From: Thermodesulfobacteriota bacterium
GTDB taxonomy: Bacteria; Desulfobacterota_D; UBA1144; Nemesobacterales; CSP1-2
Length of the DNA: 64,000 nucleotides
NCBI GenBank assembly: GCA_035559815.1
Contig: DATMAT010000052.1
Span: forward strand, 12,219 to 76,218
Direction of reading: 5' to 3'
Part shown: positions 3,795 to 43,880 of the stretch, piece after piece
Layout of the letters: each line of letters starts with the position of its first letter
Numbering within the stretch: the first letter of the stretch is position 1
Notes under the pieces: generated by a model
What the model was told of the DNA's origin: nothing
Seen by the model: only the letters and a program-made list of their open reading frames with translations
Database searches by the model: none
Made by a program: the position numbers and the translations under genes

Positions 3795-4345
3795 GGTCTC
3801 CTCCGTCATTGCGAGGAGTCCATCGACTCGGCTGGACAGCCATTTCGATCCCCACTGTAATTTCGGCCCTGAGCACAGTCGAAGGGGAGAAATCTAAAGA
3901 AAGATTCCTCACATGCGTTCGGAATGACAAGAAAGTGAGAACCCTTGGAACTTAACTGAATTCTTCACAAGCTCCCTCACATTAGTTTGGGACAGGATTC
4001 GGAATTACGCATCTGCATCCTTGATCAGGGCATGTCCTGAGCACATTGTGATTACACTCAGTGTAAATTCCATGTAGGACTAGACTCTGCCAGGAGTTTA
4101 TGCACGTTTTTCCCGTCATCCTGGGCGATAGCGAAGGATCAAGATTCTTCGCCTGAGCGTGTCCTGAGCAAAACCGTAGGGTTCAGAATGGGCATTTTTA
4201 TTTCTCTTTACCAGCGGATAAACCACCGCTCATGCTTGTCGAAGCATCATACTGAGCCCGGTCGAAGTATGAATTTAGAGCGTAAGGAATTCGTCCTTTC
4301 CCCCGGTTTAACCGGAGGACCTGGCTCAGGACGAACGGGATTGTC
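3795..4345. repeat. Mosaic array of short hairpin-forming interspersed repeats (modules GTCATTGCGAGGAG, CCCTGAGCACAGTCGAAGGGG, GTCATCCTGrGCGnnAGCGAAGGATCnAGATTCTTCGCC, TTCCCCCGGTTTAACCGGAGGACCTGGCTCAGGACGAACGGG)
   Basis: Same modules recur, partly reshuffled and in both orientations, at 10640-10795, 39375-39485, 40170-40480, 43125-43175 (e.g. 4292-4340 vs 10647-10695 about 90% identical). Confidence 0.8.
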
Positions 4346-4454
4346 GACAAGCTCACCACTCAGAACGAAGGGTGTATTATTGACAAGTCATGGTATCCAG
4401 AATGACAGCGTTGAAAGTCACCTCGAGACACAACCTATGAACTCTCAAAATAAG

Positions 4455-7400
4455 TCATTTGCCAGGGGTGGATTCACCTTTACCATATTTGACTGATCGT
4501 TCTCTCAATCGCTCGATAACCAGGTAAAACACCGGCACGACGATAAGGCTCAAGAAGGTGGCGACGATCATCCCGCCAAACACCGCCGTTCCCAGGGAAT
4601 GACGGCTGTTTGAACCGGCACCGCTGGCTACAACCAGTGGAAAGACACCAAGGATAAAGGCAAAGGCGGTCATAAGTATGGGGCGTAGCCGGATTCTGGC
4701 CGCCTCCAGTGCTGAATCCTGAATAGATAGACCTTCTTCACGGCGCCTTTTAGCAAACTCCACGATGAGAATGGCGTTCTTGCTGGCTAGACCAATGAGC
4801 ATCACCAATCCGATCTGGCAGTAGACATCGTTGTTAAGCCCCCTCAGCCATTGCGCTATCATCGCCCCTAGTATGGCTAACGGCACGGCCAACATCACCA
4901 TGAAGGGCATCGACCAGCTCTCATACAACGCTGCCAGAAAAAGAAAAACAAACACAAGGGCTAAACCGAATATGATAGGAGCCAGGTTGCCCGCCTGGAT
5001 CTCCTGATAGGCGATACCGGTCCAATCGTAGCCCATACCTGCCGGAAGTATTTCCTTGGCCAACTCCTCCATTGCCTCGATGGCCTGCCCGGAGCTGAAC
5101 CCCGGAGCGGCCGCCCCGTCGATCTCCGCCGAGCGATAGAGGTTGTAATGGGTTATGGTTTCGGCCCCCACCACCGGGGTAACCTTAACCAGGGTGCTGA
5201 GAGGCACCATCTCACCGCTTTCCGTGCGGACGTAAAGACGGGTTATATCGTCGGCTTTGGTACGATAACCATCCTCTGCCTGCAAGAACACACGATAGAC
5301 GCGGCCGTACTTGTTAAAGTCGTTGACGTAAAGAGAACCAAGATACGTCTGCAGGGTATCGAATACGTCGGATATGGATATGCCCATGGTCTTGGCTTTT
5401 GTGCGGTCGAGGTCAACATACAGTCCCGGTATATTAGCCTCAAACGAGCTGAATAACGTTTGTAGCTCCGGCCTCTGATTCCCTTTGACCACCATCTCCT
5501 GCGCCAGCTCTGCCAGCCCCTGAAGGCCGGCCGTGTTGCCCAGGTCCTGAAGCTCAAATTGAAATCCACCTGTCTCGCTTATCCCGCGAATGGGAGGGGG
5601 GTTAAAGGCCACCACAACCGCCTCCGATATTCCGGCAAACTCCCGGAGTACATTGGCCAGTATGGCATTCACCTGAAGCTCTGGGGATTTGCGTTTAGAC
5701 CAGGGAGAGAGGACTGGAAACATGGCCGCTGCATTGGAGTCAGTTGTCTGAGTAAGTATGTTCAAACCGCTAACGGCTACGACATGGTCTATACCCGGCG
5801 TAGAGCTTAAAATCTTTTCCACCTGATTGACCACCCTGGTCGTTCGCTCCAGAGAGGAGCCCTCCGGCCCCTGTATGCTTACTATGAAATAACCCTGGTC
5901 CTCGTCTGGAATGAACCCGCCAGGGACTATACGGAACAAATAGTAGGTCACGCCGAGAAGCGCTAGGAACACGGCAAGTACGACCTTCCATCTCTTCGTA
6001 ACCTCCTTCAACCAACTCTCGTATTTATCTCTAAACCGGTTGAAGCCTTGGTTGAACTTGGTGAAAAACCAGCCATGCCGCTCCGATCCCCGGCGCAGGA
6101 AAATAGCGCAGAGGGCAGGGCTAAGTGTAAGAGCGTTTATGGCCGATATCCCCACAGAACAGGCAATGGTAAGGGCGAACTGCCTGTACAACTGACCGGT
6201 GATCCCCGGCATGAAGGAGACCGGGACGAATACGGCCATGAGCACGAGGGAAGTAGCCACAATCGGCCCGGTTACCTCCTGCATCGCCCGTCGTGCCGCC
6301 TCTTTAGGTTCTAAGTTTTTCTCCTCGATAAAGCGCGAGACGTTTTCGACCACTACTATTGCATCGTCTACTACTAGACCTATTGCCAAAACCAGACCAA
6401 AAAGGGTGAGCGTATTTATGGAGAAGCCAAGCGCGCCTATCAGAGCAAAGGTCCCAATCAATGAGACCGGGATGGTAATTGCCGGGATCAAAGTGGCCCG
6501 CCAGTTCTGGAGAAATACAAACACCACTATGAATACCAGGACGAATGCCTGGAAAAGGGTTTTAAGGACCTCCCTTATGGATTCGGTTATGAACTGGGTA
6601 GGGTCATAGATGACCTCATACTCTACCCCGTCCGGGAAATTTTGAGAGAGTTTAGCCATCGCCGCCCTGACCTTTTTAGCCAGGTCAAGAGCGTTAGCTC
6701 CGGGAAGCTGAAATATGCCGATCCCAATGGCTTCCTTCCCATCCAAGAAGCTGTCGGTCCCATAATCCTCGGCCCCAAGTTCAACGCGAGCCACATCCTT
6801 GACCCTGACTACCGAACCATCCGGGCGGGTTCGCACGATGATATTCTCAAAATCCGAGATGTCCGAGAGGCGGCCAAGGGCATTGATCGTGTATTGAAAC
6901 TGCTGTCCGGGAGGGATCGGGCGCTGACCAATGGCCCCGGCAGCAACCTGCTGGTTCTGGTCGCTTACTGCATTGGCCACATCCGTGGCCGTCAAACCCA
7001 AGCTAGCCAGCTTGTCCGGGTCAAGCCATATCCGCATGGAATAGAGGCGCTCCCCCCAGATAGTGAGATTGCCCACACCGGGGATACGCTTGAGCACATC
7101 GCTTATATGTATATCAATATAGTTACTGAGGAAGAGACTGTCCCGGCTCCCGTCGGGAGAAACAATGTGTACAGCCAGCGTCAGGTCCGGGGACTGTTTA
7201 GTGACGGAGATGCCATACTGGCTTACCTCCTGGGGCAGACGAGGCTTGGCCAGCTCCACCCGGTTCTGGACATCGACAGCGGCGATGTCCAGGTTATAGC
7301 CAATGTCAAAAGTCACATTTAGGGACATACTTCCGTCATTCGAGCTGGTCGAGGACATATAGATCATCCCTTCGACGCCGTTTACCTGCTCCTCTATAGG

Positions 7401-33096: not shown

Positions 33097-34002
33097 TCAA
33101 ATATCATGCTGTGGTCTTTTAATACCCAGCTTCTTCATCCTGGACCTCAGGGTGCCGGAATTCATCCCCAGTATGGATGCCGCCCCGCGTTTACCGTCTA
33201 TTACCCATTTGGTTTCCTCGAGTGTTTTTAATATATGAAAACGTTCTATATCCTCAAGCTTCTTGCTATTGGAATTACCCATATTCACATCAGGCATCAA
33301 GTCTAGACTGTCGTCAATCTTAAGTGCTGTTCCATGAGTGAGAATAACAGCCCGTTCGATTACGTTCTCAAGCTCCCTGATGTTCCCGGGCCAATGATAA
33401 GAAGTAAGTACGTCCATTGTCTTTTGAGGTATTGCTTCTATTCTCCTTCCCAGCTTCTTGGAGTACTTGTCCGTGAAATACCTTACCAAATGCTCAATAT
33501 CCTCAACCCTTTCCCTGAGCGGAGGTATAAAGATCGGAAAGACGTTGAGCCGGTAATAAAGGTCTTGTCTGAAGCCGCCCTCTTGAACGGCTTTCTTCAT
33601 ATCCCGATTAGTGGCGGCAATAACCCTCACATCCGCTTTTAAGGTTTGAGAAGAACCAACCCGCTCAAATTCTCCCTGCTGAAGCACTCGCAGAAGCTTG
33701 ACCTGAGTCTCTAGTGGAAGCTCACCAACTTCGTCTAAAAAGATAGTCCCGCCGTCGGCCAACTCGAATCGTCCCACTCTTCGCTGCACCGCCCCGGTAA
33801 ACGCCCCCTTCTCATGACCGAATAACTCACTCTCTACCAGCCCTGCCGAGATTGCCCCACAGTTAATTTTGACCAGCGGGCGATCCTTACGCTGGCTCAA
33901 AGAATGAATCGCATGCGCAATCAGTTCTTTTCCGGTGCCGGACTCCCCTTCTATTAAAACTGTAGCATCGGTAGGAGCTACCTGCTCCACCTTGCGAAGC
34001 AC
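33097..34002 (-). pseudogene. N-terminally truncated sigma-54-dependent activator (AAA+ sigma-54 interaction domain + Fis-type HTH only; no sensor/receiver domain); GTG start, upstream in-frame sequence reads ...[15 protein letters not shown] then a stop
   Basis: GESGTGKE Walker A, GAFTGA, ATNRD...[24 protein letters not shown]; manual translation upstream of 34002 shows the conserved linker but a TAA at 34063-34065. Confidence 0.6.
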
Positions 34003-34238
34003 CTTTTGAAGCGATTCAGCCTCACGCTTACCGGGTATAACCCAGTTTGTCGCTTCAGCATTTTAAGGGCAGGGAAACTCTCAATCCCGGTTCGATCATT
34101 CCAAACCGAGATATTTCACCACGGCCGTGATATTTCTCGACTATACACGAAAGAATAACGAACAAATAAAAAGAGAAATAAGCCAAAAATAGAGTGATTA
34201 AAATCAGTTAGAAAGAGTTAAAACAGGTTTTCTCGTTT

Positions 34239-34255
34239 TGGCATACCCTTTGCAT
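34239..34255 (+). promoter_or_regulatory. Sigma-54 (-24/-12) promoter TGGCATACCCTTTGCAT
   Basis: GG at 34240-41 and GC at 34252-53 with canonical 12-bp spacing; matches TGGCAC-N5-TTGCA consensus. Confidence 0.6.
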
Positions 34256-34307
34256 TCGTTTAAAAGATAAAAAGAAGAAGAAATTCAAACCATGAAGGGG
34301 AAACAAA

Positions 34308-34514
34308 ATGGCACTTTTAAGCTTCAAGAAATACACGGAATATTTGAATAACCTACTGGTCCTGCCAAACTCGGCTGAGTTCTTTGTGGGAAGGTCGACA
34401 CAAATAAACGCTTACCGAAGGGATTCAAACGTTATTTCCTTTCGCTCAACCGAGAATAAATCGCAGAGGAAACAACCGAAATTCAGCTCAAAGCGAATTC
34501 ACTTTTTAAAATAG
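34308..34514 (+). CDS. Small hypothetical ORF downstream of sigma-54 promoter; overlapping +1 frame (34460-34691) encodes a DUF2917-like segment, so the locus may be one frameshifted gene
   Basis: RBS GAAGGGGAAA; second frame reads ...EIQLKANSLFKIDVDGKEIRISRVTGTIWVTQEGDANDHILKSGEEFVITKKGIVLLQSLSD without ATG/GTG/TTG start. Confidence 0.3.
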   Translation: MALLSFKKYTEYLNNLLVLPNSAEFFVGRSTQINAYRRDSNVISFRSTENKSQRKQPKFSSKRIHFLK

Positions 34515-34763
34515 ACGTAGACGGAAAAGAAATAAGGATCTCGCGTGTGACCGGAACTATATGGGTTACACAAGAGGGTGATGCAAATGACCACATTCTA
34601 AAGTCGGGGGAGGAATTTGTTATCACTAAAAAAGGAATCGTCTTATTGCAAAGTCTTTCCGATGTAGCGATAGAGATCAAAAGCAAAAACTATGTAAAAA
34701 ATGACAAAGATTAAACGATAGCGTAATTCCAGTAAAAAAAATTCTAAAGGAGGAACTGATAAA

Positions 34764-35822
34764 ATGGCTATCAATGAAGAAACTCTTCATCAACTTTTAG
34801 GTAAGGCTATTGTTGACTTCGGGGCAACCTGGAATGCTCCTTTGGTGGTAATCGGTGACAAGCTCGGATTGTATAAGGCGCTGGCCAACTTCGGGCCGCT
34901 CACTTCTGGAGAGCTTGCTGAGCACACCGGCACCTCCGAGCGCTATGTACGCGAGTGGCTCCGGGCACAAGCCGCCGGAGGATATGTAACTTACCACCCG
35001 GAGACCGACCGCTATAGCCTATCGGAAGAACAAGCCTTAATGTTTGCCGACGAGAACAGCCCCGCATTTATAATTGGGGCATTTCAGTCCGCATTGGCCG
35101 GAACCAGGATCGAGCCCAAGCTAGCCAAGGCTTTTCGCACCGGAGAGGGTATCGGCTGGGATGAGCACGACGAGGGGCTCTTTGTTGGTACGGAGCGTTT
35201 TTTCAGGACCGGGTATGCCGCCAATCTGGTCAGTTCCTGGATCCCGGCACTGGACGGAGTCGAAGCTAAGCTAAAAGAAGGCGCTCGCGTAGCCGATGTC
35301 GGCTGTGGCCACGGTGCTTCCACTGTACTCATGGCTCAGGCCTACCCAAACTCTACCTTTATTGGCTTTGACTTTCATGATGAGTCGATCAAGGCGGCCC
35401 GGAAACGAGCCGAAGAGGCTGGGGTGTCAGACCGAGTCAATTTTGAGGTAGCTTCATCCAAATCCTACTTAGGGAGAAATTACGATTTAGTAACCTTCTT
35501 CGACTGCCTTCACGACCTCGGCGACCCTGTAGGCACTGCGGCGTACGTGCTCAAGACACTGAAGAAAAACGGTACCTGGATGATTGTGGAGCCCTATGCC
35601 GGGGACCGGGTAGAAGACAACCTGAACCCGGTCGGACGGGCCTATTATTCCGCATCTACACTTGTATGTACCCCTTGCTCACTGGACCAGGACGTGGGTC
35701 TTGCACTAGGCGCTCAAGCTGGAGAGGCCAGAATACGCGAAGTAGTAATGAAAGGAGGCTTCAGTAGATTCCGCCGCGCTACGGCTACCCCTTTTAATCT
35801 AGTGTTTGAAGCAAGATCATAG
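34764..35822 (+). CDS. Class I SAM-dependent methyltransferase with N-terminal winged-helix/dimerisation-like domain
   Basis: VADVGCGHG motif I, DLVTFFDCLHD motif; RBS AAAGGAGG. Confidence 0.8.
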   Translation: MAINEETLHQLLGKAIVDFGATWNAPLVVIGDKLGLYKALANFGPLTSGELAEHTGTSERYVREWLRAQAAGGYVTYHPETDRYSLSEEQALMFADENSPAFIIGAFQSALAGTRIEPKLAKAFRTGEGIGWDEHDEGLFVGTERFFRTGYAANLVSSWIPALDGVEAKLKEGARVADVGCGHGASTVLMAQAYPNSTFIGFDFHDESIKAARKRAEEAGVSDRVNFEVASSKSYLGRNYDLVTFFDCLHDLGDPVGTAAYVLKTLKKNGTWMIVEPYAGDRVEDNLNPVGRAYYSASTLVCTPCSLDQDVGLALGAQAGEARIREVVMKGGFSRFRRATATPFNLVFEARS

Positions 35823-35999
35823 ATGCCGAATAGGCAATAATTAACCAACCAAGCCGTTCATGGTTCGACTTACTCAGAACGAACGGCTTAATTAAAAGGC
35901 GTTCGCCCAGAGTGTGTTGAAGGGCGCACTTTATGGATTAATTCTATCATAATTTAATTAGTGGCTCGCTAATAGAAACAATTAGCAAAGGAGGTAATT

Positions 36000-37109
36000 A
36001 TGCACCAGAAGAAACAAACTTCGACCGAAGTAATAAATCAGGTACGAGACGCCTTTGTGGAGAGGTTACTAAAATCAGCCTCGGGTGTATTTGATATCTT
36101 TACCATTTACATCGGGGATATGCTGGGTTTTTATAAAGCCCTTGCAAAACATGGCCCCTTGACATCTAGTGAACTCGCTTCCAAGACTGACACCCACGAA
36201 CGCTACGTACGTGAATGGCTCGAGCAACAAACGGTGGCAGGAATCCTTCAGGTCCAGAACCCGGAAGCAGACGCCGAGCATCGCAAATTCAAAATTCACC
36301 CGGGGCATGCAGAGGTGTTGGTCGAGCGGGACAGCCTCAACTATCTCGCCCCTCTCGCTCAAATTACCATAGGAGCGGTGAAACCGCTTGAATCTTTATT
36401 GAATGCATACCGCACTGGCGGTGGCGTTCCCTACAATGAATATGGAGCAAACCTCTACGAGGGACAAGCCGGTATGAACCGGGCCATGTTCTTACAGCAA
36501 TTGGGAACGGAGTGGCTCCCGGCTATTCCCGGGCTCAAAACCCGTTTGGAGTCAGACCCACCCGCACGTATCGCAGATATCGGATGCGGCGCCGGTTGGT
36601 CGAGCATAGGTATTGCTAAGACTTATCCCAAAGTACTCGTAGACGGATTCGACCTCGACGAGCCCTCGGTACTCCTTGCACGCAAAAACGCCGAAGAAGC
36701 GGGTGTTTCGGACCGCGTGAAATTCCAGATACGCGACGCTGGAGACCCGACGGTTGCCGGAAACTATGACCTGGTTACTGCTTTTGAGTGTGTTCACGAT
36801 ATGTCCAATCCGGTCACTGCTTTGCGGGGAATGAGAAATCTCACCAATGAGAAAGGTGTAGTACTGGTCATGGATGAACGGGTCGAGGAACGCTTCACGC
36901 CCGAAGGCAATGACGTAGAATGGTTCTTCTACGGCTTTAGTGTCCTTCATTGTCTTCCGGTTGGAATGGCTGAGCAACCCTCCGCAGGAACAGGCGCTGT
37001 TATGCGGCCGGGCATCTTAAAGCGTTATGCGGAAGAGGCCGGGTTTAAAGGTGTGGAGATTTTGCCGATCGAAAACTTCTTTTTCCGGTTTTATCGCCTG
37101 ATAAAATAG
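36000..37109 (+). CDS. Class I SAM-dependent methyltransferase, paralog of 34764-35822
   Basis: IADIGCGAGW motif I, DLVTAFECVHD; conserved N-terminal LTSSELASKTDTHERYVREWLE helix as in paralog (LTSGELAEHTGTSERYVREWLR); RBS AAAGGAGG. Confidence 0.8.
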   Translation: MHQKKQTSTEVINQVRDAFVERLLKSASGVFDIFTIYIGDMLGFYKALAKHGPLTSSELASKTDTHERYVREWLEQQTVAGILQVQNPEADAEHRKFKIHPGHAEVLVERDSLNYLAPLAQITIGAVKPLESLLNAYRTGGGVPYNEYGANLYEGQAGMNRAMFLQQLGTEWLPAIPGLKTRLESDPPARIADIGCGAGWSSIGIAKTYPKVLVDGFDLDEPSVLLARKNAEEAGVSDRVKFQIRDAGDPTVAGNYDLVTAFECVHDMSNPVTALRGMRNLTNEKGVVLVMDERVEERFTPEGNDVEWFFYGFSVLHCLPVGMAEQPSAGTGAVMRPGILKRYAEEAGFKGVEILPIENFFFRFYRLIK

Positions 37110-37402
37110 CAAAAATACTTATGGAGCAAACCCACGAGCCCTTATTTATTTCTAGATCCTTCGCTCCTTCCTGATTCTAGAACGAAGGTATTGAAAATAC
37201 TCCAGGAAATATAACCTGACCCGATGTAATCAATCTTGATTCCGATAATAACCTATCGGATATCTCAATTATCTTCGTTGTAATATACAAATATTAACTT
37301 TATTATATTCCCTCAAAAACCGAGAATAAGACGTGCGTGTGATGACGGGTATAAAAGAAACCTCGTTCCACGCTTGATCCTCTTTGGTTCTATCTCAAGA
37401 GT

Positions 37403-39343
37403 ATGGTCAGGGGCAAAAAAATCAATCTAAGCGGATTTGACCAGGATGCGGCGACCCTTGGTTCCATTTTAGAGGGTACGGCTACCGAGACAGGAGAACG
37501 CTTTTTTTCCGCCCTAGTGGAAAACCTGGCCAAGGCATTAAGAGTGCACGGAGCCTGGGTTACAGAGTACTTAGAGGAATCTCGCCGATTACGTGCTCTG
37601 GCCTTCTGGCTCGATGGGCAATTTGTACCTGATTATGAATACGACATATCCGGAACGCCTTGCGAGCCGGTCGTCGAAAACACCTGCTTAATCCATATAC
37701 CGGAGAAGGTTGTGGAGCTTTATCCCAAAGACCCGGACCTTCCCAAAGCCGGAGCGGTCAGCTACATGGGTTTTCCGCTTTTGGACATTGACGAGCGCGT
37801 CCTCGGACATTTAGCGGTCATCGACACACAGCCCATGCCGGAGGACCCAAAGGCCCTGGCCCTATTCCGCATCTTTGCCGCCCGTGCCGCTGCGGAATTG
37901 CAACGCCTTCGTGCCGAAGCAGAGGTAAGAAAGCGAGAAGAGGAACTGAAACAGTTAGTGAACAGCGCCATGGATGCGATTATTCAACTCGACCAGGACC
38001 TCAGAGTAACACTGGTGAACCCGGCCGCAGAAAAGATATTCAAATGCCCAAAAGACGAAATCCTTGGCCTGTTTTTTAAACGGTTTCTCGGGGATAAAGA
38101 CGTTGAAAAACTGGATAAGCTCATCAAGGAACTTAATGACCTTCCCGAAGCCCGACGTTATCTGTGGATTGCCGGCGGCCTTCAGGTCATATGTGCGGAG
38201 GGCGAACAATTCCAAGCCGAGGCTACGATCTCACAATTTGAGATGCAGAAAAAAATTTACTACACGCTAATACTCCGTAACGTCAACGAACGTATCCAGG
38301 CCGAGGAGAAGATTCGCTCGCTGACCGTGGAAACCGAATACCTGAAAGAGGAACTAAAGGCACTTCTCAACCTTGATGAGATTATCGGTCAAAGCGAACC
38401 GATGCTCCGAGTATTACAGGATGTAGCGCAAGTAGCGGACACAGGCTCCACAGTGCTAATTCTAGGTGAAACCGGCACTGGGAAAGAGCTTATCGCTAGG
38501 GCAATTCATTTTGCAAGCAGACGACGCGATAAACCCTTCATCAAGGTGAACTGTGCCGCCATCCCGGCCACGCTTATGGAGAGTGAATTCTTCGGCCACG
38601 AGCAGGGTGCATTCACCGGGGCCACCAAGAAAAGAGAAGGACGTTTTTCACTGGCAGACGGGGGAACAATATTCCTCGATGAGGTCGGTGAGCTTCCGCT
38701 TGACCTCCAAGTTAAGCTCCTACGCGTTTTGCAAGAGGGAGAATTCGAACCGGTGGGCAGCTCTCACACCAAAAAGGTTGATGTTAGAGTAATAGCAGCA
38801 ACCAATCGTGATTTACATAAGGCGGTGCAGAACGGGGATTTTAGGAAGGACCTTTATTATCGGCTGAACGTATTCCCTGTCGAGGTGCCTCCTCTTCGGG
38901 AGCGCGAAGACGATATCGTCTTGATTGCTTCCACCTTTGCTCAAAGATTCGCACGGAGAATGGGACGCACCATCGAACCCCTTTCTGACCGGGACATCAA
39001 ACGCTTGAAATCCTATAATTGGCCCGGAAATGTGCGTGAGCTGCAAAACGTAGTCGAGCGGGCAGTAATAACTTCCCAAGGCGGTCGGCTAAATCTAGAC
39101 CGTGCCCTGCCGGAAATAGATAAAGTTATTTCAACAACAACGACCGCTCTAGCGGAAGAGCAAACCGAACGAATTCGTACTATTCATGAAATCGAAGAAC
39201 TGGAAAGGCAGAACCTGATTCGTGCTCTGGAGGCAACCAATTGGCGTGTTTCCGGCGAGAACGGTGCAGCCAGATTGCTTGGCATGAATTCATCTACCCT
39301 AAGCTCGCGCATGAAGGCTCTTGGAATAAAACGGCCTAGATAG
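37403..39343 (+). CDS. Sigma-54-dependent Fis-family transcriptional activator with N-terminal GAF and PAS sensor domains
   Basis: 646 aa; [18 protein letters not shown]-terminus; full-length paralog of truncated gene at 33097-34002. Confidence 0.9.
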
Positions 39344-39374
39344 TCACAAGCTTTTAATCGCTTATATAAAATCT

Positions 39375-39485
39375 CGTGCTTCGAGAGGCCTGTCCTGAGT
39401 CTATCGAAGGGCTCAGCACGAACGGCTGTTTACTCAAGGTACACACAATTACCGATCACCCTGAGCCCGTCGAAGGGTGTAATTC
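39375..39485. repeat. Hairpin repeat family copies (CCTGAGTCTATCGAAGGGCTCAG; CACCCTGAGCCCGTCGAAGGGTG)
   Basis: Stem-loop complementarity checked by eye; family shared with 3795-4345 etc. Confidence 0.75.
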
Positions 39486-39587
39486 AAAATCCGATATCTT
39501 CCTTTTCACTCATTCTGTTTACCCCTCATTCTATTATTACTAACGGAGTTGTAAAATCCCGCAAATTCCCTCACGAAATCCCATGAT

Positions 39588-39603
39588 TTGCGAAATCTCG
39601 CAA
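39588..39603. promoter_or_regulatory. Near-palindromic operator/UAS TTGCGAAATCTCGCAA, about 70 bp upstream of a sigma-54 promoter
   Basis: One mismatch from perfect palindrome; perfect version TTGCGAGATCTCGCAA at 40596-40611. Confidence 0.5.
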
Positions 39604-39669
39604 TTTGCATCCAGCTATCATAAGTACCGTAACTCATCATATTCGTTAAATAAACTGTCTCGGTGGAAT

Positions 39670-39686
39670 TGGCATGATCTCTGCAA
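39670..39686 (+). promoter_or_regulatory. Sigma-54 promoter TGGCATGATCTCTGCAA
   Basis: GG 39671-72, GC 39683-84, 12-bp spacing; about 80 bp upstream of ATG 39764. Confidence 0.55.
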
Positions 39687-39763
39687 TTACCTTGTTGTAG
39701 CTGATGAGAACCGATTTAACTGAAGTTTTGTAAGGAGAGTTGGAAGGCTTTCAGGATTGAGCA

Positions 39764-40162
39764 ATGGAACCGGGAATGATAGCAGGCACAATCTCGACGA
39801 CCGTTTTTACCTTAAGCAACATCCCCATGTTGCTTAAAGCAGCAAGGACCCATAATCTGCGGTCCTACAGCTATACATATATCATCATGAATAACTTGGC
39901 CAACCTGATACATTGGCTTTATATATCAGCGATGCCTTTCGGGCCCATTTGGATTCTCCACGGGTTTTATACCGTATCGAGCGTATTGATTTTACTCTGG
40001 TATCTCCGCTATGAGAAAGGATATCAGGGCTTTTCCCTGGACATTAGAAAGGCGCTCGCCCTCCCTCATTTAAGAAGAACCAGTCGAGTTTCTTATATAA
40101 AATTTAAATTGCAAGGGTTTAATCTAATCAAAACGGACACGGCATCAGCAGGTCACCTCTAA
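39764..40162 (+). CDS. SemiSWEET-like (PQ-loop/MtN3 family) small 3-TM membrane protein; C-terminal about 45 aa of the track ORF runs into the repeat region and may not be real
   Basis: IAGTISTTVFTLSNIPMLLKAARTHNLRSYSYTYIIMNNLANLIHWLYI aligns with SemiSWEET TM1-TM3 (PQ replaced by PM). Confidence 0.45.
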   Translation: MEPGMIAGTISTTVFTLSNIPMLLKAARTHNLRSYSYTYIIMNNLANLIHWLYISAMPFGPIWILHGFYTVSSVLILLWYLRYEKGYQGFSLDIRKALALPHLRRTSRVSYIKFKLQGFNLIKTDTASAGHL

Positions 40163-40169
40163 CAAGACG

Positions 40170-40480
40170 ATTTCACTTTTCCAAATGCCCAGTCGAAGGA
40201 CAACCTATCTCATCCTTCGACCCTGCTCAGAGCCTGTCCTGAGTACAACGAAGGAATGAGCGGATTCACATCCGATATAATAAAACCGCTAAAAAATATA
40301 AAAAAACGTTCACCCTGAGCCTTTCATTACATTCAGAGCTTGTCCTGAATAGAGCGAAGAAATAGACTCTGCGAAGAGTCAATGCACGTTTTTCTGTCAT
40401 CCTGAGCGGCAGTGAAGGATCTAGATTCTTCGCCGCTTAGTACACCCTGAGCCAGCCGAAGGGCGGCTCAGAATGACAAA
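40170..40480. repeat. Dense array of hairpin repeat-family modules (GTCCTGAGTACAACGAAGG, GTCATCCTGAGCGGCAGTGAAGGATCTAGATTCTTCGCC, CACCCTGAGCCAGCCGAAGGGCGGCTCAGAATG)
   Basis: 40375-40445 about 85% identical to 4095-4165. Confidence 0.8.
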
Positions 40481-40574
40481 TGACAGTGGCAGATATTCAC
40501 TGGTGAACAGAAAAAAGTCATGTGAAGGATTCAATTACATCTCAGACTGTTCGCGTGTCTTATTATCCCCATTT

Positions 40575-40628
40575 ATGAAATCTCGATAATTTAATTTGCG
40601 AGATCTCGCAAATTGCGAAATCTCACAA
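40575..40628. promoter_or_regulatory. Perfect 16-bp palindrome TTGCGAGATCTCGCAA (40596-40611) flanked by partial copies (GAAATCTCGATAAT; ATTGCGAAATCTCACAA): candidate enhancer/UAS
   Basis: Read directly; about 90 bp upstream of sigma-54 promoter at 40697. Confidence 0.55.
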
Positions 40629-40696
40629 ATCTTTCCTGCACCCTAAATTTGACGTAATCATTTACAATCATTAAATATTTATGAATAAGGTAAACA

Positions 40697-40712
40697 TGGC
40701 ACGCAACATGCA
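40697..40712 (+). promoter_or_regulatory. Sigma-54 promoter TGGCACGCAACATGCA
   Basis: GG 40698-99, GC 40710-11, 12-bp spacing; 55 bp upstream of osmC-like ATG. Confidence 0.55.
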
Positions 40713-40767
40713 CTTATATATCAATAGTTCTTGACAACAAAAAATTCAAAAAAGGAGGTAAAGTAAA

Positions 40768-41355
40768 ATGTCAGAACAAGCAACAGCAAGCAAGGTGGAA
40801 GAAGTTGTTTTAAATGGTGTTAACGTCAGTAAGCTCGTAGACACCATAGAGCTAATCAAGGAGAATGCGGAGGTGGCCAAGTTTAAATTCCGCGCCTCCA
40901 ATAAATGGCTAATCGGAGGACACAACCGGTCGACCATTAAAGATTTTTACGGCGCTGGCCAGGAGGATACCTCAAGAGAGAAACCATTCGTTTTTGACAA
41001 CGATGAGCCTCCCGTCCTTCTGGGAGAGAATAACGGAGCAAACCCGGTGGAGTTTATACTTCATGCTATGGCCGGCTGCATAACCACCACTTTTGTGTAC
41101 TACGCTGCGGTTCATGGTGTTAAGATAGACGAGATCGAATCCTCCTATGAAGGCGACCTCGACCTCCGTGGAATGCTCGGGCTGCCTGGTCGGACAGAGG
41201 TTGGCTATGAGCGAATCCGGGTGAAATTCAAAGTTAAATCGGATGCGCCGAGGGAGAAGCTGGAAGAACTTATCGACCTGGCCCAGAAGAGATCGCCGGC
41301 TGCAAATAGCGTGATGAATCCCGTCCCCGTCTCGATTAGCCTAGAGACATCGTAA
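40768..41355 (+). CDS. OsmC/Ohr family peroxiredoxin-like protein
   Basis: 195 aa; GANPVEFILHAMAGCITTTF and second conserved Cys context typical of OsmC; RBS AAGGAGG. Confidence 0.75.
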   Translation: MSEQATASKVEEVVLNGVNVSKLVDTIELIKENAEVAKFKFRASNKWLIGGHNRSTIKDFYGAGQEDTSREKPFVFDNDEPPVLLGENNGANPVEFILHAMAGCITTTFVYYAAVHGVKIDEIESSYEGDLDLRGMLGLPGRTEVGYERIRVKFKVKSDAPREKLEELIDLAQKRSPAANSVMNPVPVSISLETS

Positions 41356-41448
41356 AATAAAAACGGCATGCTATATAAGGGCTAACACCCGACCTACAGC
41401 ATGCCTTTATCATAGCCCATAATTTGTATATTAAGGAGGATTAGAAAG

Positions 41449-42234
41449 ATGGCAGTCAAATGTCCTGTAGGATTTGATGTAATCCGCTTACGTGAGTTGG
41501 TACATGAAACATATGACCGGGTAGCCCACGAGCCCCAGGGCGACTTTCACTTTCACCGTGGTCTGGATTATGCCGTCGAGTTCCTTAATTACGATAGAAA
41601 GGAACTTGAATCGTTACCCGTAGAGTGTACAGCCCGCTTTGCCGGTGTTGGCAACCCGCATCGCATTGGCAGGATCCAGCCCGGAGAGACCGTCCTTGAC
41701 CACGCCTGTGGCGCCGGTATGGACCTACTTCTTGCAGCAAAAAAGGTAGGGCCCAATGGCAAGGCTATCGGTGTAGATATGACCAAGGCTATGCGTGACT
41801 ATGCCAAAGCTTCCGCCGAGAAAGCAGGGCTTTCACACATTGTGGATATACGTGAGGGATTCATGGAGGAATTGCCGGTCGAAGATGAAAGTGTTGACGT
41901 AGTCATCTCTAACGGAGTCGTCAACCTCTCACCGGATAAGGAAAAGGTGTTCAAAGAAATCGTCCGTGTGCTCAAACCCGGAGGGCGCTTATTCCTGGCA
42001 GACGTGGTGGTGCAGAGGGAGCTAAAGCTCGATGCACGCAGCAGCCCTGAGTTATGGGCAGCATGTATTGGGGGTTCACTCCCGGAACCGGAACTATTCG
42101 AAATAAGCTCGGCTGTCGGTTTGTCTGATGGAAAGATTCTGGAACGTTTTGATTGCTTCAAAAATACCTCTGCCGAGGTTAAGGTGTCTAAGGACCTGTA
42201 TGTTCAGGCAGTTAACTTCTTTGCCAGGAAGTGA
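41449..42234 (+). CDS. ArsM/UbiE-like class I SAM-dependent methyltransferase (two of the three ArsM catalytic cysteines not conserved)
   Basis: VLDHACGAGMD, VISNGVVNLSPDKEKVFKEIVRVLKPGG, AACIGGS align to ArsM (SNCVINL, GECLGG) but YYGCG becomes RFAGVG and NCV becomes NGV. Confidence 0.65.
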   Translation: MAVKCPVGFDVIRLRELVHETYDRVAHEPQGDFHFHRGLDYAVEFLNYDRKELESLPVECTARFAGVGNPHRIGRIQPGETVLDHACGAGMDLLLAAKKVGPNGKAIGVDMTKAMRDYAKASAEKAGLSHIVDIREGFMEELPVEDESVDVVISNGVVNLSPDKEKVFKEIVRVLKPGGRLFLADVVVQRELKLDARSSPELWAACIGGSLPEPELFEISSAVGLSDGKILERFDCFKNTSAEVKVSKDLYVQAVNFFARK

Positions 42235-42287
42235 AGCGGGAATCCACAAGAAAAAATAAGGCTTAGAAGCAGTTAACAAAATTATTA

Positions 42288-43058
42288 TTAGGTTAGACCT
42301 AATAGTAAGACACCCAAACCGATCAAAATAATGCCAAGCGGTTTACTGAACCGACGGCCCCATGATGTGTTCTTCTCTATTGCCATTACTATAGCCAATA
42401 TAAACATCCAGCCGAGACTGCCGAAACCTACGACAAACATGAGGAGCATGAGGGCCCAACAGCAACCAACGCAGAAAACACCGTGATCCACACCTAGACG
42501 AAACGAATTCCATTTTTCGTTGCGTCCCTGCCAATGCTCTATAACAAAGCTGAAAGGAGACCTGCACTTGTCGAGACATCTATATTTTAGTGACGTAAAC
42601 TGAAAAGCACCGGCGAGAATCAGCAGGAAGGGAGCGCCAGCCAGTTCTTGATGTCCGAGCCATGGTATATTACCCAATACCCAGTGCAATAACTGATATC
42701 CGAGGTAGATCAATATGCCAAAGAGAACCCAGATTATTAAGTAGCCAATTATTACCAGTGCCACTAATAGCAGGCGGTCAGGCCTACTACCCGCAAGTGT
42801 ATGGAATGTGGCAATTACCGGAAGACTCGTGGGCAGCATCATGGCTACTGTCATAACCGTCCAGCCTAATACGAACAGCAGGATAAATGAGCTCGATGAG
42901 TGGATATGATGACCTAAATTATGGGTATGAAATAAGCTGTTAACCGAGTCCTCGGTGAGCCAAAGAGCTATCCAAGCACCCAAAACGAGTATTAAAATCG
43001 AAAAAAACAATGCCGTGCGCTCGACAGCAGGAGGGACCGAGCTTCTGAACATTGACAT
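42288..43058 (-). CDS. DUF2182-family predicted metal-binding integral membrane protein
   Basis: 256 aa, about 6 TM, His-rich loop HTHNLGHHIH, CVGCC motif; classic partner of DUF1326. Confidence 0.55.
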   Translation of the reverse strand: MSMFRSSVPPAVERTALFFSILILVLGAWIALWLTEDSVNSLFHTHNLGHHIHSSSSFILLFVLGWTVMTVAMMLPTSLPVIATFHTLAGSRPDRLLLVALVIIGYLIIWVLFGILIYLGYQLLHWVLGNIPWLGHQELAGAPFLLILAGAFQFTSLKYRCLDKCRSPFSFVIEHWQGRNEKWNSFRLGVDHGVFCVGCCWALMLLMFVVGFGSLGWMFILAIVMAIEKNTSWGRRFSKPLGIILIGLGVLLLGLT

Positions 43059-43268: not shown

Positions 43269-43880
43269 TTAAGCTTTAAAACGAAAAGAACCGGATACTG
43301 CGTTGTGGCCTTTTAGGTCAATATCGAATCCAGGGACTTTGGCTCTATAATTCGATGCCTTGCCCACATATGCAGGAGAACCAGGAATTGTGGTAAAAAT
43401 GGTATCGTGAATCGCCGACTCTTTTCCCGTTAAGCCTTTAAACGGAGCTAGCGAGGCTTCAATTCCATCCCCAACTTTAATAGTTCCGCTAGCACCCTTG
43501 ATATCAAATGTTATCGGGACCTTTTCCACCGATACAATTTCTCCCACGAGCTTAGCCATATCGGCAATAGGTCCACCAAGCTTTCCAGACCAAACGTTCA
43601 AGAGCGCTTCTTTCTGTTTATCCGTCGCATTCTGGTCAATATAGACACGTACAGACCAATTCCCTTTAAGGATGTTACCGGGAATGTGGCATAGCATTAC
43701 AATGGAACGTCCCGAGACGTCCACCCCTTCAACATTTCCTTTATCCACATGCCATCCCAGCAAACCGTCACAGTAATCTAGGTCCGGGTCTTCTCCTACC
43801 CAGCATGGGCAGAGGATATTGCAGGTACATACTTCTAAAAGCCGACCTTCAACTTCATACGCCATTTCAGCCCTCCTCAT
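43269..43880 (-). CDS. DUF1326-family protein (CxCxxxCPC N-terminal motif)
   Basis: 203 aa; EVCTCNILCPCW motif typical of DUF1326; adjacent DUF2182 gene. Confidence 0.6.
   Translation of the reverse strand: MRRAEMAYEVEGRLLEVCTCNILCPCWVGEDPDLDYCDGLLGWHVDKGNVEGVDVSGRSIVMLCHIPGNILKGNWSVRVYIDQNATDKQKEALLNVWSGKLGGPIADMAKLVGEIVSVEKVPITFDIKGASGTIKVGDGIEASLAPFKGLTGKESAIHDTIFTTIPGSPAYVGKASNYRAKVPGFDIDLKGHNAVSGSFRFKA

Follow-up and report, generated by a model that had tools for sequence, protein, structure and literature searches.

We describe here a putative regulatory locus in 64,000 nucleotides of DNA from a Thermodesulfobacteriota bacterium (GenBank assembly GCA_035559815.1, contig DATMAT010000052.1, positions 12,219 to 76,218 of the forward strand). 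This whole stretch is referred to as the window, and positions are counted from its first letter. The locus consists of a gene for a sigma-54 activator, or enhancer-binding protein (EBP), followed by two promoters of the -24/-12 type, P1 and P2, each preceded by a candidate upstream activating sequence (UAS1 and UAS2) and followed by the genes of its putative targets. Comparison of this DNA with related loci indicates that the region is very probably a complete single-component sigma-54 switch, in which the EBP acts on P1 and P2. The features on which this reading is built are the following, with the dyads of each UAS scored in bits by a position weight matrix (PWM):

37403..39343, + strand: single-component sigma-54 activator (EBP), 646 aa, with GAF-like, PAS, AAA+ (with GAFTGA) and Fis-type helix-turn-helix (HTH) domains
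39549..39564: UAS1 dyad A, degenerate, TTGTAAAATCCCGCAA, 6.2 bits, 22 bp before dyad B
39571..39586: UAS1 dyad B, TCACGAAATCCCATGA, 15.7 bits, 17 bp before dyad C
39588..39603: UAS1 dyad C, TTGCGAAATCTCGCAA, 20.0 bits, the first palindrome of the first-pass annotation, kept in the related locus L095
39670..39685, + strand: sigma-54 promoter P1, TGGCATGATCTCTGCA, GG-N10-GC, exact consensus, kept in L095
39764..40162, + strand: P1 target, 132-aa protein with three transmembrane helices and a SemiSWEET-like fold (AlphaFold2 model, 483 relatives)
40573..40588: UAS2 dyad A, TTATGAAATCTCGATA, 12.3 bits, 23 bp before dyad B
40596..40611: UAS2 dyad B, a perfect 16-bp palindrome, TTGCGAGATCTCGCAA, 20.2 bits
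40613..40628: UAS2 dyad C, TTGCGAAATCTCACAA, 17.5 bits, 17 bp past dyad B
40697..40712, + strand: sigma-54 promoter P2, TGGCACGCAACATGCA, GG-N10-GC, exact consensus
40768..41355, + strand: P2 target 1, OsmC-like protein of 195 aa, one-Cys subfamily (PF02566, 73.7 bits)
41449..42234, + strand: P2 target 2, S-adenosylmethionine (SAM)-dependent methyltransferase of 261 aa, UbiE/ArsM-like (NCBIfam, structure alignment)

By its domains and motifs, the regulator is a genuine sigma-54 enhancer-binding protein. In Pfam, its AAA+ domain matches PF00158 (Sigma54_activat) with an E-value of 2.1e-75 over residues 327-493, the Walker A (GETGTGKE) and Walker B (IFLDEVGE) motifs are both found, and the GAFTGA motif, the loop that contacts sigma-54, is intact, with an exact match at nucleotide 38606. 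Other Pfam matches are AAA_lid_14, PAS_9 and HTH_8 (residues 597-639), together with a weak one to GAF_2 (E 0.007). The AlphaFold2 model of residues 1-300, with a pLDDT of 84, presents a GAF fold and then a PAS fold. The description as a GAF-PAS sigma-54 activator, first made from the letters of the DNA, is in this way borne out both by the Pfam matches and by the modelled fold, and the protein, as read from its sequence, carries all the features required for sigma-54 activation. The best match of the sensor model in the PDB is the GAF-PAS module of DhaR(N) of E. coli (Foldseek E 9e-11), further matches being phytochrome GAF modules and the PAS domain of FixL; at the sequence level the PAS domain is nearest to FixL and DosP (E 6e-7). 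A heme-binding PAS was considered and found unsupported, the invariant columns of the alignment containing no His in the PAS region (residues ~180-300). In the GAF-PAS module C87, within GTPCE, is the only invariant cysteine, and the histidine H136 is invariant as well. Among the 120 best relatives listed, nearly all are full-length, with ~65-73% identity, and those named come from Thermodesulfobacteriota, Nitrospirota, Acidobacteriota, Binatia and Gammaproteobacteria. In NCBIfam the EBP falls below every equivalog cutoff, its top matches being NifA and FhlA, reached via AAA+ and HTH.

All coordinates of the palindromes and of the -24/-12 promoters given by the first-pass annotation are confirmed. 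The exact palindrome pattern TTGCGANNNNTCGCAA (TTGCGA-N4-TCGCAA) occurs twice in the window where 0.02 occurrences are expected, and none of 100 shuffles reaches two. The exact promoter pattern TGGCAYNNNNNNTGCW occurs three times against 0.42 expected, a count reached by one shuffle in 100; its third match lies at 34239. Both P1 and P2 follow the sigma-54 promoter consensus TGGCAC-N5-TTGCW. The description of the enhancers themselves has to be changed. Instead of one palindrome per UAS, the repeat search and the PWM reveal an array of three 16-bp dyads in each, spaced by 22/23 and then 17 bp, with the palindrome first seen as its strongest dyad, and what had been taken for flanking half-sites are really further full dyads (40573 and 40613, and likewise 39571 and 39549). 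Dyad C of UAS1, TTGCGAAATCTCGCAA, has perfect 6-bp arms around a centre, AATC, that is not self-complementary. When the whole window was scanned for triple dyads only UAS1 and UAS2 were found, with summed scores of 50.1 and 41.9 bits, and the next best triple scored -6.8. The last dyad begins 82 bp ahead of the -24 TGG at P1 and 84 bp ahead of it at P2; with transcription starting probably near 39696 and near 40723, respectively, the dyad centres would lie ~100, 117-120 and 140-143 bp upstream of the starts.

Could such palindromes be mere structural repeats, of the REP (repetitive extragenic palindrome) or terminator type, or the product of chance, next to strings that resemble promoters by coincidence? 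The same intergenic regions are indeed rich in genuine REP-like hairpins, and no sigma-70-type promoter is prominent in the region, where sigma-70 promoter and terminator scans gave the same result as shuffles. We give this explanation almost no weight. The palindrome count was not matched by the shuffles, there are no T-tract terminators at the dyad and promoter sites, and an Rfam search of 33900-42400 returned no RNA family. Moreover, as detailed below, the sequence of the dyads itself, beyond its pairing, is conserved across phyla with low to very high G+C, and the distance to GG-N10-GC is fixed.

The association of the arrays with the EBP was examined in 91 loci carrying a close relative of its gene, ~11 from a genome scan and 80 from a metagenome scan seeded with the sensor-domain alignment. 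The genome scan, made with the full-length EBP, was swamped by AAA+ paralogs (~11 of its 80 loci contained close full-length relatives), and 68 of its paralogous-EBP loci served as controls. An iterated and symmetrised PWM was scored over the first 350 bp downstream of the EBP gene, for which 63 non-redundant loci had usable sequence. In 50 of these 63 loci the array core, CGA-N-AT-N-TCG, is found directly after the gene for the full-length GAF-PAS EBP. PWM matches amount to 6.2 per kb in these 350 bp; in the rest of the same loci the rate falls to 0.13 per kb, and downstream of paralogous EBP genes to 0.09 per kb (2/67 loci). The strict core CGA.AT.TCG behaves likewise, with 82 matches in the EBP-related loci (650 kb), which with few exceptions lie 10-220 bp past the EBP stop codon, against 11 in 755 kb of paralog-EBP loci. 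Exactly three dyads are present in 32/63 loci. Among the dyad spacings, 17 bp and 22/23 bp each occur 39 times, and in 31 of 41 cases a GG-N10-GC promoter follows the last dyad at 80-87 bp. Both modules of the window conform to this architecture, the P1 distance of 82 bp falling within the family mode, and the enhancer-type geometry proposed for them agrees with that of related loci, the arrays ending 82-84 bp before TGG. Outside the dyads, both between and around them, the DNA is unconserved, and G+C ranges from low to very high among the loci, which argues that the array is a footprint and not residual synteny. As for the palindrome TTGCGA, proposed as the UAS, the site is real but its conserved part is the core CGA-N-AT-N-TCG; the flanks, TTG/CAA in this lineage, differ between lineages, with CACGA or TACCGA in place of TTGCGA elsewhere.

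Loci sampled from OsmC-like and MddA homologs, independently of the EBP, offer a held-out view of the same architecture. In two loci (L161 and L165) the EBP gene lies within ~3 kb without being adjacent, and an array upstream of the OsmC-like gene has dyads spaced by 23+17 bp and a promoter 84 bp further on, a geometry identical to that of UAS2-P2 in the window. In three loci with an OsmC-like gene and no EBP within 5 kb (L162-L164) there are neither sites nor promoter. Of the six mddA loci, three (L166, L168 and L171) carry, directly upstream of mddA, an array of the canonical 22+17 spacing with a promoter 82-84 bp beyond it; an EBP within 4.5 kb is missing from all six. The five untrained loci with arrays score 37-53 bits as triples, and the best triple in 742 kb of control DNA reaches 0.1 bits, against 42-50 bits for the modules of the window. 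Together with the enrichment after the EBP gene and the fixed promoter spacing, the gap between 0.1 bits in controls and 42-53 bits in true arrays effectively refutes structural repeats or chance as the origin of the dyads. Some of the sampled loci present further arrangements. In L165 one three-dyad array lies between divergent sigma-54 promoters, 4719 (-) and 4930 (+), one for the OsmC-like gene and the other for an operon of a methyltransferase and an MBL-fold gene. In L163/L164, from Blastocatellia, AurF-like and OsmC-like genes are adjacent (3889-5585), with genes for an extracytoplasmic function (ECF) sigma factor and a Ser/Thr kinase beside them, and this pair may have another regulatory solution.

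Which protein binds the dyads? The strong conservation of the HTH recognition helix throughout the EBP family matches the conserved motif core, and we count it in favour of the EBP. Co-variation of HTH residues with the dyad flanks gave no usable signal, the flanks varying within single loci. It might be argued that another protein, either an unrelated regulator or a second EBP encoded nearby, occupies the dyads, and that the full-length EBP acts elsewhere. This second gene (33097-34002, - strand) encodes AAA+ and HTH only, with GAFTGA present, and its product is 57% identical to the main EBP over these domains, with a near-identical recognition helix. Nevertheless, the gene seems to have lost its 5' end, its conserved N-terminal AAA+ motif being located upstream of the first possible start codon and directly behind a stop, and a sensor domain is lacking. 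In addition, the array accompanies the full-length EBP across the family, and no other regulator gene is recurrent in the EBP-related loci. Binding by another protein thus seems to us improbable. The palindrome was originally assigned to the activator from the sequence, and comparative genomics (50/63 EBP loci against 2/67 paralogs, with fixed promoter spacing) now supports this assignment. In the loci compared, dyad arrays are associated family-wide with this EBP and with sigma-54 promoters.

Several points weigh against a working switch governed by the EBP. The truncated paralog, 3.4 kb upstream of the EBP gene and with a near-identical HTH, could in principle occupy the same sites. In 12/63 related loci there is no site after the EBP gene. 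The training set of the PWM was made of the same downstream regions that were first scored, a circularity mitigated by the controls and the held-out loci. UAS1 dyad A, with only 6.2 bits, is degenerate, and dyad B of UAS2 has two substitutions in L095, which suggests that individual dyads tolerate decay. Finally, rpoN is absent from the window, and its presence in the genome is presumed.

Some of these observations could also be taken as signs that what survives in this genome is a silent or decaying remnant of the module, for instance after its arrangement had been disturbed by insertion of REP-like elements. REP-like hairpins, which also resemble miniature inverted-repeat transposable elements (YCCTGAG-N5-14-GAAGGR), number seven in the window against 0.02 in shuffles. 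All of them are on the + strand, at 3867, 10736, 39393, 39459, 40237, 40400 and 40445, and five flank the P1 module intergenically, in two groups:

39383..39477, + strand: a pair of REP-like hairpins (YCCTGAG..GAAGGR), past the end of the EBP gene and ahead of UAS1
40227..40463, + strand: REP-like hairpin cluster, between the P1 operon and UAS2

The first of these stretches cannot be aligned with L095, and its REP copies have no counterpart there. Besides the insertions in these two stretches, decay would fit with the degenerate dyad of UAS1 and with the truncation of the neighbouring EBP paralog. Against it, P1 and P2 are both exact consensus matches, the dyad-promoter distances are still canonical, the target open reading frames (ORFs) are all intact and belong to conserved families, and the REP-like insertions fall outside the UAS-promoter units. 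A point for the working switch is that the closest relative, L095, with ~92% nucleotide identity, has kept both modules, and the intergenic DNA surrounding them has changed. We consider a silent remnant no likelier than binding of the dyads by another protein.

The functional switch, which we prefer, might operate as follows. EBP dimers would bind the three tandem 16-bp dyads (core CGA-N-AT-N-TCG) through the C-terminal Fis-type HTH, and a signal sensed by the N-terminal GAF-PAS module would free the AAA+ domain. The three enhancer-bound dimers would then build an active hexamer that touches the promoter-bound sigma-54 holoenzyme via GAFTGA, and ATP hydrolysis would open P1 and P2. P1 (39670) would drive expression of the membrane protein with the SemiSWEET fold, and P2 (40697) that of the OsmC-like protein and the UbiE/ArsM-like methyltransferase. 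Because UAS1 dyad A is degenerate, P1 may be weaker than P2. We infer from sequence the binding of the EBP, the assembly of the hexamer on three sites, the dependence on RpoN and the co-transcription of the OsmC-like and methyltransferase genes.

The predicted target of P1 belongs to a family with 483 representative relatives, in which residues 1-88 are conserved and the C-terminal tail is variable. The top PDB matches of its AlphaFold2 model are all SemiSWEETs, with TM-scores (target-normalised) of 0.72-0.82, root-mean-square deviations of 2.1-2.5 Å and Foldseek E-values of 0.08-0.6. PQ-loop (PF04193) and MtN3 (PF03083) are found weakly in 17/34 and 16/34 family members (best E 1e-3 and 2e-4), and the family motif is an invariant P21-M22, not P-Q. 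The label SemiSWEET-like, given to the protein from its sequence, thus holds at the level of the fold but finds no PQ-loop or MtN3 match in the window protein, which has no Pfam match at all.

The first predicted target of P2 aligns along its length with PDB 2OPL, annotated as 'hypothetical protein' (E 1.5e-62, ~60% identity), behind which we take GSU2788 to be the locus tag. The first Cys of OsmC proteins is present (AGCITT) and the position of the second is a Ser (KRSPAAN), as it is in 2OPL. An identity as a two-Cys thiol peroxidase of the OsmC/Ohr type was rejected on this replacement of the second catalytic Cys, and the protein also falls below the NCBIfam OsmC_like_Se cutoff (79.8 against 95). 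In the case of the methyltransferase, ArsM was likewise tried and rejected. The enzyme scores 208.7 with the NCBIfam arsenite methyltransferase subfamily model, under the cutoff of 263, and alignment to solved ArsM structures shows two of the three As(III)-binding Cys replaced (FWGCGNP to FAGVGNP and ISNCVINL to ISNGVVNL), with only the third retained (AACIGG). Of the OsmC-like / ArsM-like pair that had been announced, the OsmC domain (PF02566) and the relationship of the methyltransferase to ArsM are upheld, but the name ArsM does not apply. The enzyme shares 72-77% identity with methyltransferases encoded beside OsmC-like genes (L161, L165) or mddA (L167), the one in L167, directly downstream of mddA, being 72.5% identical to it. 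Between the OsmC-like and methyltransferase genes, at 41356-41448, there is a hairpin with a long loop (GGCATGCT...AGCATGCC) followed by TTTATCAT; it could attenuate read-through and was not flagged by the terminator scan. Convergent on the methyltransferase gene are a PpoB2/DUF2182 ('copper chaperone') membrane protein (42288-43058, - strand) and a DUF1326 protein (43269-43880, - strand), a pair that is kept in L095 and has no established tie to the regulon.

A third exact sigma-54 promoter, TGGCATACCCTTTGCA, lies at 34239-34254 (+ strand). It is followed by ORFs at 34308-34514 (68 aa) and 34547-34714 (DUF2917-like, 55 aa) and by two Rv2258c-like methyltransferases (HTH_65 + SAM) at 34764-35822 and 36000-37109. 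All are on the strand of the EBP gene and directly upstream of it, and read-through into that gene is possible. A canonical UAS was sought for this promoter and rejected. By eye there is a degenerate array, with PWM scores of only 3.7 and 5.2 and the wrong spacing. It corresponds to an inverted repeat, CGAGATATTTCAC-N6-GTGATATTTCTCG, at 34108-34139, ~100-130 bp upstream of the promoter, whose outer ends resemble the core halves CGAGAT/ATCTCG.

What does this family of activators control elsewhere? A census of 52 non-redundant loci whose downstream sequence extends for 1 kb or more identified an OsmC-like protein as the commonest target, in the operons after the promoter in 24/52 loci, together with AurF-like di-iron proteins (16/52), BBE-type FAD oxidases (12/52) and TPR proteins (6/52). 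Four loci have MddA targets that exceed the cutoff of the NCBIfam equivalog NF045656, set at 270 bits (L159 with 352, L106 with 348, L131 with 374 and L084 with 281), and in L106 and L131 the OsmC-like and mddA genes share one predicted operon. Other targets include UbiE-type methyltransferases, one sulfite-dehydrogenase-like protein and one SBP56 protein, of the methanethiol-oxidase family and far under the MtoX cutoff. No mddA gene was found in the examined part of the window. In a soil clade (L154:7114-8163, with L113, L129, L133 and L137) the first gene behind the promoter combines an apparent membrane domain (motif WWYW) and an OsmC-like domain, either fused or overlapping in different frames, and a TPR protein of 550-580 aa comes next. 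In L126, ~175-270 bp past the EBP stop (~4120-4220), a ~30-codon remnant resembling the N-terminus of MddA-like proteins follows the sigma-54 promoter and precedes a gene for a BBE-type FAD oxidase, which suggests target replacement within the module.

MddA is the methanethiol S-methyltransferase, which makes the climate gas dimethylsulfide (DMS). Transcription of mddA, mddH and mddM is induced by H2S and methanethiol (MeSH), and that of mddM also by H2O2, and the papers that report this induction name no regulator (PMC11445057, PMC12904073). Methanethiol oxidase, in turn, yields H2O2 (PMC5739008). The targets MddA and SBP56 hint at a detoxification regulon that responds to thiols; for the commonest targets no link to thiols is known. 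As a tentative and rather doubtful proposal, the EBP family might act as a transcriptional sensor for volatile thiols (methanethiol, H2S or their persulfides) via the GAF-PAS module with C87 and H136. Under this proposal thiols would be S-methylated by MddA and by the UbiE/ArsM-like methyltransferase of the window, the latter as a new Mdd-type enzyme, and oxidised by the SBP56 protein. The one-Cys OsmC-like protein would handle the resulting peroxide or persulfide, and the SemiSWEET-like protein would take care of transport. If true, MeSH-dependent DMS production in soils and sediments would have in the EBP one of its major regulators. The canonical modules directly upstream of mddA in several genomes provide a testable candidate for the regulator of DMS formation from methanethiol.

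Leaving the signal aside, there are now, for a widespread, strongly conserved and unnamed family of sigma-54 activators, a predicted binding motif, an enhancer layout of fixed spacing and an initial list of putative targets. Targets of mostly unknown role (2OPL-type OsmC-like proteins, AurF-like proteins with BBE-type FAD oxidases, methyltransferases) would be tied by it into one inducible response. The system is canonical, and its category is not new. The literature searched appears to contain no description of the EBP family, its motif or its regulon: searches on OsmC with sigma-54 EBPs and on the motif strings returned nothing relevant, and a paper on the Desulfovibrio sigma-54 regulome contains no OsmC or methyltransferase regulon.

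Among characterised systems, the sulfide/persulfide-responsive FisR of Cupriavidus and Acinetobacter is a single-component sigma-54 EBP that responds to sulfide and activates an adjacent sulfur-detoxification operon (PMC7315123). Should the thiol hypothesis hold, FisR would be its closest precedent in function; the sqr/pdo-type sulfide oxidation genes that FisR targets are absent here. NifA and FhlA share with the EBP the common design of a GAF-modulated sigma-54 activator; nevertheless, the EBP scores 392 against a cutoff of 529 for NifA and 390 against 830 for FhlA, the sensor is covered in neither match, and the UAS motif and the regulon differ. DhaR, the regulator of the dihydroxyacetone kinase operon in E. 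coli, has the same GAF-PAS-AAA+-HTH order and gives the best structural match of the sensor, but its sequence match is weak, with a sensor identity of only 13-15%, and with the DhaR equivalog model the EBP scores 239 against a cutoff of 551, in a match that reaches into the sensor (residues 125-643). DhaR works with sigma-70 and is controlled by its protein partners DhaK and DhaL, whereas the EBP retains GAFTGA and adjoins -24/-12 promoters. NorR, the NO-sensing GAF-AAA+-HTH activator of E. coli, recognises the motif GT-N7-AC, unlike the CGA-N-AT-N-TCG of the EBP, which reaches 378 with the NorR equivalog model, under its cutoff of 476 (and over AAA+ and HTH only), has an additional PAS domain and has targets unrelated to norVW. 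Yet both are single-component regulators with an N-terminal GAF sensor, and both appear to control detoxification genes adjoining the regulator gene. Above all, NorR at norVW, like the EBP, has three tandem dyad enhancer sites near a sigma-54 promoter, and all three are required there for full ATPase activity and open-complex formation (PMC2831303).

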